Virus genome (UHGV): UHGV-0391018
Origin: a virus
Length of the DNA: 33,836 bases
Direction: 5' to 3' (one strand)
The notes beneath the pieces are model-generated. The model did not search any database, was not told the DNA's origin, and was given only the letters and a program-made list of their open reading frames with translations. The translations under genes and the position numbers were made by a program. This document shows, one piece after another, positions 9,252-16,584 of the stretch (the first letter of the stretch is position 1; each line of letters begins with the position of its first letter).

Positions 9252-12242
9252 TTATAATCGCCCCCTTGATTGTCTTTCTGTCAATTTAGCTAGTTTAAGC
9301 GAGGTATCTTCGATAGCTTGCTCACTAGATAAATCAGCATATTCAATATTGAAATTGAAGTTCGGTGCATATGACTTCGATTCGCTTGAGTTGTTAATAA
9401 TTTGCCCTCCTGCGCTTACTAGACCCATTCTTCCCGATCCTAAAGCTATCTCTGGAGTGATTTTATCTAATAATCCAGATGATAAAGCTTCCATTGTTCT
9501 GAATGCTTTATCTGAATCGGCCTCAATACCAGCTGCGATTCCTTGAGGAATGTATCGACCGATTTCATCTCTCATTACTCTAGACGGAGAATGGATATTA
9601 AGAGCATCAGCGATTGTATCCTTAATGCCATTCCCTATATCTGCAATAGTATTCCATAGGCTTTGTAAGCCGCTTGTAACACCGTTTATTAGCCCGCTAA
9701 TAATATTCTGACCAATAGAATAGAGATCAATATTTCCCAAATTGCTAAAATAGCTTTGAACTTTGCTTACTGCATCAGAAACCCCTCGAGTTAGATTATT
9801 CCAAGCGTTTTGCGCTCCGCTTACCAATCCATTGATGATACTTAAAACAGATGACTTTAAGGATTGCCACATGTTAGAAGCCGTTGACTTGATCCCGTTC
9901 CATAAATTCGACATGAAATTTTTAAACGAGTTCCACGTATTTTGAAGCCCGCTGACTAATCCAGAAACGATACTAGAAACGTTGGCTTTTAGTGCATTCC
10001 AGATCGAGCTTGCTGCCGATTTGATCGCATTCCAGATGTTCGTAACAACTGACTTCAAATTGTTAAACTGAGCTGTGACATACCCAACGATTGTAGAAAC
10101 CACACCCGAAAAGTAGGTTTTTATACCATTCCAGATCATGGACGCCGCCGCTTTGATGTTATCCCAAATTTGAGAAAGGTGTGATCCCATGCTTGAAAAG
10201 TCACCTGTAATTAAATCGGTAAGAATCAAAACAGGTGCGAGAATGACGTTTTTGATCAATTCCCACGCACCTTGAGCAACCATTTGGATACCTTGCCAGA
10301 TCATACTTAAGCCAGAAGAGACGCTGTTCCAGACATTCATAAAGGCATCAATGAACGGCTGAATGATTCCCATAATCGTCGTTTTGAATAGTTCCCACAT
10401 GACAGAAGCTGTTGTCGTGATATTGGTCCATAGTGTAGTAAAGAATTCTACTATGCTTGTCCACGCATTTTTTATGCTTTCAACAGCCGAACCGGCGGCA
10501 AGTTTTATTCCTTCCCATATTCCCGCAAACCATTCACCAACGCCCGTCCAAGCGGCAACGATCGCATTCTTTGCAGTCACGAATGCTTGTTTGATGGCTT
10601 CCCAGATCGCAATGACGGCATTTCTAAAGCCTTCGTTTGTCTTCCAAAGATACAAGACTCCGGCAACTACTGCAGCAATAGCTGTTCCAATCAATACGAG
10701 TGGGCCACCTGCAGCCGCGGCAAGTGCCGAAAAGCCTGCTTTCAAAAGAGTCAAAGCTCCAGCTGCCGACTTAATCATACTAATCGCTGTTACTAAACCT
10801 TTTACCGCTGTAACAACAGTTGTGATCGTAGCGATTACGGAAGAGATGGTTTTGAATGCCAAAAAGCCAGCTACTGCTCCTGCAAGAACAGCACCCAGTG
10901 TATTAAAGACTTCCTTATTTTTATTGACCCAATCTGTTGCTTTCTGCAATGCCGGGACAACCTCATTCATAATGGCTTCTGTGATTTTTCCGCTCACATC
11001 CCAGATAACATCTGCCAATTTTGATAACATCGGCATGATCGTGTTCACGAATCCATCAAGAAGTGGCTTCATGATGTCAAGAGCTAACGGCACGACGTTG
11101 GCCAATAATTCTGAAAGTGCAATAGCCCAACTCGATATGATACCACTAATTTTCACTAGGATCGGCTGTGCTTGTGCGAGCAGGTTTTTAAAACTATCGA
11201 TGAATCCACCGATGCGATCTTTAACGGAATATACAAGGTTACTTATTGATCCTTTGATCCACATCGTTGCCCACTTCATATTTGCAATGATTCCATCGAA
11301 CATCTTCACATTGCTAAAACCGCTTTTCAGTTTCTCGATAGCCGGTAGAATCATATCCATTGATTTTACAATTGAGTTACCAGCATTATTGATCAGTACT
11401 TTCAGTCCATCGATGTGTTGAGCAATAGTTTTACCAGAAACTTTTTGAACCAATTCATCAAATTTTGTAATTATATTTGCCACGTTTTTTGAAATTGAAT
11501 TTTTCAGATTTCCGAATGAAGTAGCGATACCAAGACTATTCTCTTTGGCTAGCTTCGCTAGCATTCCAGTCCCTGTACCTAGCTCAATCAATTTATCTTG
11601 AAACTGATCAAACGTTACATTTCCTTCTTTCAAGGCAGCATAAAGATCGCGCTGGGCAGACTTTCCGGTAAAACCCATCGCCTCTGCAGTCTTCTGTAAT
11701 GCAAGCGGCATCGTTTCTTGAAGTGTTTTCCATGACTCCAAATCCACAGTTCCTGAAGAAAGCATTTGGTTATATTGTTGCATACCACGATTGGCATCTT
11801 CAGTAGATGCGCCACTTGCTAGAAACGCATTATTCAAAGCCAAAACTGTATCAGTTGATTTATCGAGATCACCAGTGATTGACGTTAATTGTTGTGTACT
11901 GGCCACGACATCATCTAACTTAGTCGGCAGACCATCAATTCCATCAGATAGCTTATTAATCGACTTTTTTGAGTCGTCAGCACTGAATCCTAACGCCTTC
12001 ATAACCTTCGGAAACTTTTGCATCGTGTCGAAACGTGACACCGCGTCTCCAACGGAGTTTTTGAGTACATTAAAAGCTGCACTGGCAAGCTTAACAGCTC
12101 CGACAGCAACGGCCATATCTCTAATGCTCTTATTGGCTTTTGTAGATTTCCCCTCTAATTGATCCAAGTTTTTATTCAATCCAGTTACATCTTTACCGTC
12201 TACATTGACAGATATTGATACCGTTCCATCACTCATCGTCAT
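9252..12242 (-). CDS. Tape measure protein (996 aa).
   Basis: It is very long and Ala/Gly/Ser-rich, with repeated W/F-xx-I/L helical motifs and a central hydrophobic glycine zipper. It follows the G/GT chaperones. Confidence 0.85.
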
Positions 12243-12807
12243 CCTCCTCCCTTAACATATTTGGAAGAGCGTACTTACGCTGTAATTCACGCATTCTCCG
12301 CTTTTCTTTTGCATCCATTCCTTTTTGAGGTTCCCAATTTCGAATCTGGATGATGCGTTGCATAATAGAATCGTCTGGTAAACTCTCAAGAAGTGCCTGG
12401 AACTCTTGCCAAGAAAGTTTTCCTTGCTCTGCGAATAGATTTATCCCTATTTGCCTGAACGACGCATAAATGTACTTCGCGTCATAAACGATATCTAAGC
12501 TCTTTTTAGTCGGCTTTGTTGGTAATTCGTTTCCAAGTTCATCAATTTCAGGTTGATTATTTCCTTCGAATAAAATGAACTTGGATCGAATTAACTCCCA
12601 CATGTCCAATTTTTCGGATAAACTTAAATCCGTTTCTCCTACTAATAATTCAATAACCAAGTCAATCTTTTGCTTACTAAACAGCTCTTTGTCTGCTAGA
12701 ACATCAAACACGTCTAGCACATTGTCAAAAGCTAAATCAATTGGATAGGTTTTTTCACAAAAAGAAAAAGAGGTAACAAGCGGATCATTTAACCGCATAA
12801 CTGTCAC
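12229..12807 (-). CDS. Tail assembly chaperone, downstream (-1 frame, 'T') part.
   Basis: It lies in the -1 frame relative to the upstream 129-aa gene and overlaps it by GTGA. This is the conserved G/GT position before the TMP. Confidence 0.5.
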
Positions 12808-13193
12808 CCCTTCTTAATTGCTTTTTTCTTCAAATATTCTTTTTGAACATTAGTCGATTTGCTTTCCTGCTCTTTCTTGAACTCGTCGATATTCTGTGCA
12901 ATCCCACTAGCCAAATCAAAGAATGCGTTAATCCAAGCGATAAGGTCTGGTACTTCTTTGTACAGTTTCTTAAACGCTCCATCACCAAGCATTACGTCAT
13001 AGCCTAAGCCAAGCGCTTCTTTCTTCGACTCAATATCACCATCATCTTCCAATTCATTTAGTTTCTTTTCAACCTCTGCATATTTAACTTCATATTCTTC
13101 AATATGCTCCGCAGAACAATCAAAAAAGAAATCTAATCCTGCTAATGATACAGGGAACCCTGTTCTTTCAACATTAATATTTAATGCTTTCAT
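12804..13193 (-). CDS. Tail assembly chaperone G.
   Basis: It is a small acidic protein between the MTP and the TMP. Confidence 0.55.
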   Translation of the reverse strand: MKALNINVERTGFPVSLAGLDFFFDCSAEHIEEYEVKYAEVEKKLNELEDDGDIESKKEALGLGYDVMLGDGAFKKLYKEVPDLIAWINAFFDLASGIAQNIDEFKKEQESKSTNVQKEYLKKKAIKKG

Positions 13194-13203
13194 ATTCGTC
13201 CTC

Positions 13204-13431
13204 CTATGCTGATGCTGGAGTTATTTTCACAATGGCACTTTCTTTTCCATAGCCAATTTCATTTTTAGCTTGTGCCTTGAATTCATACTCCGATCCGTTT
13301 GTTAATCCACTAATATCACCCGTTTTTGTTGTAACTTCTTTTTCAGAGAATGTAGCCGACCCGGTTCTATACAAAATCTTATAGCCAGTAATATCCGATG
13401 CGCCGGACGGATCAGTAAGTGTGTAGCTCAC
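13204..13431 (-). CDS. FN3/Ig-like domain ORF, most likely expressed as a C-terminal extension of the major tail protein by a -1 frameshift.
   Basis: It has a GTG pseudo-start and no RBS. Its frame is open from the MTP 3' end, and it shows a beta-sandwich-like Ig/FN3 pattern. Confidence 0.6.
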   Translation of the reverse strand: MSYTLTDPSGASDITGYKILYRTGSATFSEKEVTTKTGDISGLTNGSEYEFKAQAKNEIGYGKESAIVKITPASA

Positions 13432-13475
13432 TTTTCCGTCACCGGCTGTTACCTCTATAGTTGGAGCATCGGGTA

Positions 13476-13958
13476 CTATTTTTTTGGTGTAATCTCTGGA
13501 ATTCGGTCAAAAGTAATCGTGCAGCTAAAGTCTTCATATTCTGTAGCATCGCCTGCGCCTGCAATGATATCCGTTAAGGTAGCGCGTCCGATATATGTGT
13601 CGCCGTTTGTCATCACAACTTTATGCCATACTTTACGACCTTCGCCAGTCTTGTATTTCTTTGAAGCAACCAAAGCTTGCGCAGCATCTTCAGGGTCGTA
13701 AAAACCTTCAGGACTATACGCTCCTGCGACCGCCGTTACTGTCGTTTCTGGTGTTCCATCGCCATCGTAAAAACCTGTATCGTCTGTTTGCTCATCGGTA
13801 TCATCGCCAATGGAGCTAATGTACTTGGCTAACCGTAACCATTCTTCACTTTCTGCTGTTGGCGCGGTTTCTTGACCTAGTGTGTATTCAGCTAAGTAAT
13901 GTTCCCGTTTCGCATTCTTGTTACGAGCAAATAATTGTATATTCATTTTTAATAGCAT
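13476..13958 (-). CDS. Major tail protein (160 aa).
   Basis: It sits between the tail completion gene and the chaperones. An A_AAA_AAA slippery heptamer lies at its last codons. Confidence 0.6.
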   Translation of the reverse strand: MLLKMNIQLFARNKNAKREHYLAEYTLGQETAPTAESEEWLRLAKYISSIGDDTDEQTDDTGFYDGDGTPETTVTAVAGAYSPEGFYDPEDAAQALVASKKYKTGEGRKVWHKVVMTNGDTYIGRATLTDIIAGAGDATEYEDFSCTITFDRIPEITPKK

Positions 13959-15460: not shown

Positions 15461-15679
15461 CTAGCCTCCACTTGGTTCGGTTACTGTGACTTCACATGTT
15501 GCCGTCTTCCCGTTCACTGTCTTAGCGGTAACTGTAGCAGTCCCCGCAGCAATGGCGGTTACTTTTCCTTGCACTGGCGTGACAGTCGCAATAGCGGTAT
15601 TACTTGAACTATATTGGACTGACTTATCTGAAGCGTCACTAGGCACGACAGTCGCAGATAGTGTTTCGTTTGCCCCCAC
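15461..15679 (-). CDS. Big_2 (bacterial Ig-like) domain, most likely fused to the MCP by a -1 frameshift.
   Basis: It has a GTG pseudo-start. The frame is open back into the MCP 3' end. The sequence ...TVTAKTVNGKTATCEVTV... is a Big_2-like pattern. Confidence 0.65.
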   Translation of the reverse strand: MGANETLSATVVPSDASDKSVQYSSSNTAIATVTPVQGKVTAIAAGTATVTAKTVNGKTATCEVTVTEPSGG

Positions 15680-15723
15680 CGCAAGCGTAGCCGTTGTTTT
15701 ATTTAGGGTTACGCCGGATGGGT

Positions 15724-16584
15724 CTACGCTTTTGGGACGTATGAAACGTAAATTGCTTTCTTAGCATTATCAAATACAATTGCATCGTAGTAATCCAAAC
15801 CTTTGATGGTGTCACGGTATCCGCTTCGGTCTTGAGAAGCTGGAACAGTATCGACGGTACCAAATTTCACGATTGGCGCAATCGCAGTTAGAGGTGTAAT
15901 GATGAAGTTGATTGTATCTTCAATATTGATACCATTGATACGGTTTTTCGATACTTTGAGGATCGGCACACCGCCATCGATCTGAGCTACTGTACGATTG
16001 ATTCCATTAATTTGCATTTGGTTTGTGGAGAAAGTTTTGCTGACTCCTTTCGCATTCTTCAATAGACGATACGTTGCAGCAGAAACAAACATCACGTATC
16101 CACCTGGAACTTCATTATCCGTCATATATTCTTCTGCGGCATCATAGGCAGCTAGGATAGTATCTTCTGTTAATGTTTCAGGTACTTTATTCCCAGCGTT
16201 TTCAAACATTACTTGGACAGCGACTTTGTCCCGATGTGGTACCGTGATCAAGCGCTTGTGTTCTGTCACAACGTTATTGATTGTCAATGCCGCACTTTCC
16301 GATTGATCTAACTGGTCTACGTCATATCCGAACCAATCTTCATGAGTCAGCTTGATGGTTTCTTTTGCGATACTGATTTGGTTGCGAGCATTTTCCCCGT
16401 TTCGGATGTATTCAGTAGCTTCCATAAAACCTGACATTTTATTGATCCGAACCTCATTTGCACCTACGAAATCTGCTGCAGTGATGCTTTTTGCACCTTG
16501 AGTTAGTACATCCCAGACTTGAGAATCCGCGCGAAATTCTTTGTCGATTGTTGCTAAATCTTTACTATCTAATACTAATGCCAT
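15724..16584 (-). CDS. Major capsid protein.
   Basis: It follows the scaffold gene and is about 31 kDa. A CCCAAAA slippery site lies at its 3' end. Confidence 0.7.

Follow-up and report, generated by a model that had tools for sequence, protein, structure and literature searches.

A probable -1 ribosomal frameshift at A_AAA_AAA_UAG that would append a fibronectin type III domain to the tail-tube protein of an Enterococcus avium-group prophage

The virus genome UHGV-0391018, analysed as a single stretch of 33,836 nucleotides (nt) and referred to here as the window, carries all of its structural genes on the minus strand. The subject of this work is the 3' end of the gene for the major tail protein (MTP), i.e. 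the tail-tube protein, together with a reading frame for an FN3 (fibronectin type III) domain that follows in the -1 frame. The MTP gene is the zero-frame open reading frame (ORF) listed at 13476-13958 on the minus strand and encodes 160 amino acids (aa). Its product matches NCBIfam NF047353 tube_lmo2291 (6.8e-45, 152 bits against a cut-off of 27) and phrog_820, annotated as major tail protein (3e-57), and shares 40% identity with the Tsh protein of Listeria phage A118. As a Pfam scan gave no match for MTP, the identification came from NCBIfam and PHROGs, and these matches bear out the assignment of the gene as a major tail protein in an earlier reading of the DNA made from its letters alone (hereafter the sequence-only reading). 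The order of genes is a tail-terminator-like gene (PF12691), MTP, a chaperone pair and the tape measure protein (TMP). The locus had no megablast match among 50,697 phage records, and in blastn and tblastn searches only the tube domain was matched, in Streptococcus, Bacillus and Enterococcus phages, none of them with the present FN3 arrangement.

The MTP ORF ends with ACA CCA AAA AAA TAG. Its final two sense codons lie within the slippery heptamer A_AAA_AAA (13479-13485, minus strand), which has the X_XXY_YYZ phase, the zero-frame phasing of the run of seven A residues (A7) being (CC)A_AAA_AAA. The zero-frame UAG (13476-13478, minus strand) abuts the heptamer on its 3' side in a 'shifty stop' context, and the overlapping -1 codon is AUA. 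The nearest upstream stop in the -1 frame is TGA at 13509-13507; from 13506 this frame is open through the heptamer as far as 13207, where it is terminated by TAG at 13206-13204. Both frames are thus open only over 13479-13506 (minus strand), and any shift is confined to this overlap of only ~30 nt, at the 3' edge of which the heptamer lies. The -1-frame extension (13204-13479, minus strand) comprises 91 codons (IVPDAPTIEV...ITPASA) and the TAG at 13204-13206. The post-slip product reads ...IPEITPKK-IVPDAPTIEVTAGDGKVSYTL..., with the predicted junction of the fusion at ...ITPKK-IVPDAPTIEVTAGDGK and KIVPDAPTIEVTAGDGK as a candidate junction peptide. The predicted masses are 17.7 kDa for the short form of 160 aa and 27.2 kDa for the fusion of 251 aa. 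The sequence-only reading had proposed a heptamer at this position before the stop, a -1 frame open from there into the ORF listed at 13204-13431, and products of ~17 and ~27 kDa; the heptamer is indeed in phase and directly abuts the UAG, the translation of the open frame is as had been given, and the computed masses agree. Zero-frame readthrough of the stop codon was rejected because the next zero-frame stop comes 7 codons later.

The 91-codon extension matches Pfam fn3 (8e-10, 39.2 bits against a cut-off of 25). Its closest phage relatives, from Lactobacillus, T5-like and other phages, lie at the C-terminal end of proteins, most of which carry an annotation as major tail, tail or tail fiber protein. 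In the AlphaFold2 (AF2) model of the trans-frame product (mean pLDDT 81), a tube domain that resembles the tube of lambda gpV is followed by a beta-sandwich at residues 167-246. The best full-length matches of the model in the Protein Data Bank (PDB) are lambda gpV (8iyk_D and 7t4f_A), and its C-terminal part matches many FN3 structures, with TM-scores (normalised to target length) of 0.55-0.78. The Pfam match, the predicted beta-sandwich and the structural matches together uphold the earlier view that the extension is an FN3/immunoglobulin (Ig)-like domain.

Relatives of the locus were gathered in three collections by the FN3 peptide alone, blind to the junction, and one extra locus was added via a protein look-up. 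The FN3-bearing loci come from gut viromes, E. avium-type phage contigs, E. malodoratus ATCC 43197, E. viikkiensis LMG 26075 and metagenomes, and represent seven distinct variants with ~77-98% DNA identity over MTP and FN3. The sequence CCAAAAAAATAG is kept in 7/7 of these variants, with FN3 always in the -1 frame. The heptamer is invariant despite synonymous divergence at or near saturation, the proportion of synonymous differences (pS) being 0.46-0.78 in MTP and 0.20-0.63 in FN3. Between lineages, the dN/dS of FN3 is 0.07-0.15 in the -1 frame (dS 0.24-1.36) as compared with about 0.9-3 for the same region in both other frames. Purifying selection is therefore restricted to the -1 frame; this frame is accordingly translated, and both a pseudogene and a sequencing artefact are ruled out.

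Among the distinct FN3-less junctions, none of nine ends in AAAAAAA-stop; an in-phase A7 is present at one of the loci (L081), where the -1 frame behind it encodes another peptide. In a close FN3-less relative (L002), the MTP of which is 89% identical, the tube gene ends with CCA AAA GTG TGA. Two terminator-like hairpins (L002, 3480-3575) stand directly after its MTP stop, at the position where the window has FN3; FN3 is hence gained or lost as a cleanly exchanged module that sits between MTP and the chaperone gene. In a relative from E. faecalis (L006), the tube gene ends with CCA AAA GTA TAA, and behind it lies an Ig-like gene of its own that has an ATG and a strong ribosome-binding site (RBS). 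Extra domains that are in frame with the tube domain are found in distant members of the family, namely P0083 (FN3) and P0051 (Big_2), and also P0028, P0036, P0086 and P0108. In BLASTP, the trans-frame product of the window aligned with the in-frame protein P0083 in one piece across the shift site, which corresponds to the inter-domain linker.

Downstream of the heptamer, a two-tier stem-loop (13395-13472, minus strand) was predicted as a stimulatory RNA structure. Its outer 7-bp stem, CCGAUGC/GCAUCGG (13466-13472 with 13395-13401), begins 6 nt past A7, within the spacing of about 5-9 nt that is typical of such stimulators; inside it is an interrupted hairpin of 16 bp (13427-13446 with 13402-13419). 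The fold of the RNA from the stop codon onward has a minimum free energy of -35.5 kcal/mol (z = -4.2). When five other lineages were folded separately, the same architecture was obtained with a spacer of 5-6 nt and z values of -2.7 to -3.7, so that all of the folded variants, six of the seven, share it. In an alignment of the stem-loop, 92% of the cells are paired, and the changes are all one-sided and wobble-compatible. Two rare codons in this region are yet invariant, namely CCC at the 5' arm of the structure, which is the rarest Pro codon (3% usage), and AUA, the first trans-frame codon, which is seldom used for Ile (12% usage). Rfam gave no match in 13200-13700 at E <= 1, and inspection of the alignments by eye found no upstream Shine-Dalgarno (SD)-like stimulator conserved among the relatives. 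As judged by sequence and comparison, the anatomy of the signal, its conservation, the lack of a start of its own for the FN3 frame (see below) and the translation of that frame are established.

Given these features, the FN3 domain is very likely made by extending the tube protein in the -1 frame, and the 3' end of the tube gene of this Enterococcus avium-group prophage is probably the site of a programmed -1 ribosomal frameshift. The majority of ribosomes would stop at the UAG and release the 160-aa tube protein. A minority would slip by -1, either with two tRNA-Lys on the AAA AAA of A_AAA_AAA (tandem slippage) or, alternatively, by P-site slippage of the last tRNA-Lys while the slow-to-decode UAG occupies the A site ('shifty stop'), and the stable stem-loop 6 nt downstream would aid slippage. 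The shifted ribosomes would read AUA GUA CCC ... and add the 91-residue FN3 to give a protein of 251 aa and 27 kDa (...ITPKK-IVPDAPTIEV...). The short and long forms would co-assemble in the tail tube, a fixed fraction of the subunits displaying an outward FN3. On the model of SPP1 gp17.1* and of further Ig-like decorations, the FN3 on the tube probably makes weak contacts with cell-wall carbohydrate. The ribosomal nature of the shift, its efficiency, the presence of both forms in virions and the function of FN3 are what we infer from the sequence comparisons.

Several observations weigh against a programmed ribosomal frameshift. The window is A-rich, and A7 occurs in it 29 times as against 38 +/- 8 expected; hence, the rarity of A7 alone was discarded as an argument. 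Of the invariant Lys columns, about half contain only AAA in any case. No double-sided compensatory change was found among the pairs of the stem-loop, most of which are invariant, and shuffle controls were not exceeded in the covariation analysis; the structure is therefore conserved but not proven by covariation. Synonymous variation affects 13/24 codons (54%) over the structure versus 31/43 (72%) elsewhere, a trend in which the suppression of synonymous sites is not significant (p = 0.18 and 0.058). The heptamer A_AAA_AAG is a better shift site in E. coli than A_AAA_AAA (PMC5009743). Finally, a free-standing Ig-like ORF with its own RBS lies at the same locus in E. faecalis relatives, and unattached Ig-like proteins are therefore possible at this locus. 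In favour of the frameshift, the chance expectation for an in-phase A7 within the 30-nt overlap is ~0.004 (17 minus-strand A7 in 33.8 kb and 8 in-phase positions), and the comparative data are a much stronger support than this figure.

Of the other explanations, the one that survives best is transcriptional slippage, in which RNA polymerase would add one A on the A7/T7 tract and the A8 mRNA would encode the identical ...PKK-IVPD... junction. The shift site is a pure homopolymer, as slippage of this type would use, and an A_AAA_AAG-like site would be possible only with a moved stop, hence the sequence of the site does not discriminate between the two. Poly-A before stop codons is used for slippage in bacteria, as in tssM with 11 A's (PMC4256274), and the slippage tract of Thermus dnaX consists of 9 A/T (PMC5009743). 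However, the run is 7 A's in every relative, on which slippage may still occur at a low level, as compared with at least 9 in documented efficient cases (PMC5009743), and the conserved stem-loop at a 6-nt spacing and the stop in the A site are features of the ribosomal type that a polymerase does not need. Furthermore, sister phages of the tube family use the non-homopolymeric ribosomal sites C_CCA_AAA and CCC_UAA to gain their Ig-like modules. Because of the short run, the ribosomal-type features and the sites of the sister phages, slippage of the polymerase is the less likely process and is considered improbable here. Were it to operate, alone or in part, which has a correspondingly low probability, the Ig-like decoration of the virion would be set by transcriptional recoding, and the conserved stem-loop would act on the polymerase or on mRNA stability and not on the ribosome.

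Production of FN3 as a free protein of 75-91 aa is much less probable again. Such a protein would need initiation at the GTG at 13431 or at an AUA, a non-canonical start, or else reinitiation after termination at the MTP stop. In its favour, NCBI and other sources list a separate 'fibronectin type III domain-containing protein' in E. avium genomes, and E. faecalis relatives own the independent Ig-like gene at the equivalent locus. However, the annotations assign four different starts to the stand-alone ORF (for products of 75, 84, 90 and 91 aa). Three of these starts are non-canonical (ATA, GTA and ATA), among them an AUA in overlap with the final A of the run. This is as expected if no real start exists. 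There is no ATG, GTG or TTG in the -1 frame between the upstream stop and the GTG at 13431, and the listed 75-aa ORF at 13204-13431 is only the part of the -1 frame downstream of this first canonical start. Upstream of the GTG (13429-13431, minus strand) is ggtaacagccggtgacggaaaa, which holds no AGGAGG-like motif at usable spacing, and no SD precedes any candidate start, whereas the neighbouring genes have a clear SD (aggagg or gggagg, e.g. aggaggacgaatATG) and the independent ORF of E. faecalis, with its strong RBS and ATG, shows how a real start looks here. The GTG is replaced by GTA in 5/7 variants. It codes for residue 177, which is inside strand B of the FN3 model, and initiation there would thus remove strand A and part of strand B. 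The codons from A7 to the GTG are also under the same purifying selection. The description of this codon in the sequence-only reading as a pseudo-start without an RBS therefore holds. A scan for promoters and terminators found neither a promoter-like nor a terminator-like site between MTP and FN3. In the locus L001, the gene caller placed no gene in the 285-nt 'gap' between MTP and the chaperone gene.

That the arrangement is non-functional, either as a homopolymer indel artefact (the true sequence being an A8 in-frame fusion) or as a decaying former fusion, is essentially refuted already: although homopolymers are error-prone and one contig (L032) is in frame at the junction, the exact A7 is found in the independent isolate assemblies of E. 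malodoratus ATCC 43197 and E. viikkiensis LMG 26075 and in numerous contigs from metagenomes and viromes, 93 contigs carry the exact tube protein and 526 the 75-aa FN3 ORF, and FN3 is free of stops and indels, with a dN/dS of ~0.1 at a dS of ~1 that excludes a pseudogene. The contig L032 (1040-1340) is from the human gut and has a coverage of 0.9; it reads AAAAAAATTAG / CCAAAAAAATTAG, an extra T putting FN3 in frame. As a second frame break is present inside its FN3, the in-frame reading is most likely a read error rather than a natural in-frame variant. Another record, with an identical FN3, is labelled Stenotrophomonas maltophilia, probably through contamination or mislabelling.

That frameshifting can decorate phage tails and capsids with Ig-like domains has been known since the early 2000s. 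Such extensions of capsid and tail proteins are well established (PMC5009743), the examples for major tail proteins being SPP1, Listeria PSA, A118 and A500, and Lactobacillus A2 (PMC5009743; PMC6316719; PMC8718954). The probable -1 frameshift described here makes the locus a so far unannotated example of this known type of phage recoding, and no concept is changed by it. The homologous precedent is Tsh of Listeria phages A118, A500 and PSA, the long form of which is made by a +1 shift at (AAA) CCC_UGA and carries an Ig-like domain (PMC5009743, reviewing Zimmer 2003 and Dorscht 2009). In both cases the tube proteins belong to a homologous family, the Ig-like domain lies out of frame right behind the tube gene, the stop codon immediately follows the shift site, and recoding, which for the window is predicted, also affects the phage's capsid gene. 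However, the shift in Listeria is +1 into a Big_2 domain, whereas here it would be -1 at A_AAA_AAA_UAG into FN3.

In SPP1 (Auzat 2008), gp17.1* acquires an FN3 of ~87 aa by a +1 shift at CCC_UAA (PMC6316719); the ratio of the two forms is 3:1 and the extension is non-essential (PMC6316719; PMC8718954). The sequence-only reading had seen in the window a mirror of this FN3-decorated tube protein. The likeness is one of outcome, as in both cases a tube protein would gain an FN3 of ~87-91 aa via recoding at the gene end with the stop as part of the signal, but it does not extend to the mechanism, because the shift in SPP1 is +1. With the site A_AAA_AAA_UAG and a -1 target frame, the present case falls outside the CCC_stop +1 subtype of SPP1 and Listeria and into an A2-like -1 subtype.

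The closest mechanistic precedent is Lactobacillus phage A2, in which the genes for the major head and the major tail protein both undergo -1 shifts (Garcia 2004 and Rodriguez 2005, cited in PMC5009743 and PMC5221750). The heptamer of the A2-group head gene is CCCAAAA (PMC6950654), identical to the heptamer of the capsid gene in the window (see below), and A2 shares with the present phage the -1 shifts, here predicted, in head and tail genes that lead to Ig-like extensions. The hosts and the protein families differ, and the comparison rests on the direction of the shift and the head heptamer. Lambda gpV, whose structure best matches the predicted trans-frame product over the full length, likewise consists of a tube domain and a C-terminal Ig-like domain, but in lambda the Ig domain is in frame, is present on every subunit and is Big_2, not FN3. 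For the major head protein of Enterococcus faecalis phage phiEf11, a -1 shift on AAAAAAA before TAG with a downstream stem-loop has been proposed (PMC5221750). This is again an Enterococcus siphophage with AAAAAAA directly before TAG and a stem-loop; however, the gene is that for the capsid, the extension is only 21 aa, and the proposal was called speculative by its authors (PMC5221750).

The predicted fusion of 251 aa is absent from a collection of 15 billion proteins, and its recognition amends how a prophage lineage widespread in the Enterococcus avium group is annotated, since public records give a 160-aa tube protein and an orphan 'FN3 domain protein' whose four starts are arbitrary. A tube family is also extended by a -1 solution (A_AAA_AAA_UAG), a family whose Listeria members are textbook +1 cases. 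Five arrangements are found in this one family, namely -1 at A7, -1 at C_CCA_AAA, +1 at CCC_UAA/UGA, in-frame fusion and a separate gene. According to an idea quoted in PMC5009743, the insertion of Ig-like modules is random and recoding follows later in evolution, and the five arrangements represent a compact natural series for testing it.

The sequence-only reading had also pointed to a second Ig-type addition, on the capsid, and this is supported. The major capsid gene (15724-16584, minus strand) ends with GTC CCA AAA GCG TAG. The -1 frame at 15461-15736 (minus strand) encodes a Big_2 domain (Pfam, 5e-13) and is open across an in-phase C_CCA_AAA at 15736-15730. The capsid-Big_2 fusion would be 374 aa and 40.1 kDa, and the junction is conserved in L001 and L002.

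The tail chaperone pair on the minus strand consists of a DUF6673-like gene (12804-13193) and a Phage_Gp15 gene (12229-12807), the latter in the -1 frame. The two frames overlap by only ~8-10 nt (GAAGGGGTGA, 12804-12816), and any shift of the G/GT type would therefore need the G_GGG next to the UGA stop. Alternatively, Phage_Gp15 may have a start of its own at GTG 12807 or ATG 12798.

A short tail in the -1 frame, 23-26 aa long and with a common motif, is found in FN3-less Enterococcus relatives (L006, 1410-1520 and 3450-4003; L047-L051; L081, 1960-2503). In E. faecalis prophages, it lies behind the capsid gene (VAPKVGKLTPTTSGVVIEMEEGA) and behind the tube gene (ITPVIGKMTPTKTGVIIEMEKGE, after C_CCA_AAA), and in Enterococcus sp. 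DIV1537a it lies behind the tube gene after an in-phase A_AAA_AAA (SVAPQVGKLTPTTSGVIVDMKEEDRK). At the tail locus, each short -1 tail is followed by a separate Ig-like ORF of 149/150 aa. The 'split FN3' interpretation of the short -1 peptides was unsupported, as a Pfam scan of the peptide together with the ORF gave no fn3 match; the shared-motif tail could be a docking tag or a split domain.

Two further loci of the same tube family, L052 (1950-2321) and L076 (1915-2275), carry a homologous FN3-like module of ~111-115 aa for which the Pfam fn3 support is marginal (E 0.07). The module is placed behind opposite shifts, in L052 at -1 behind ACC CCA AAA TCG TAG and in L076 at +1 at TTA CCC TAA.

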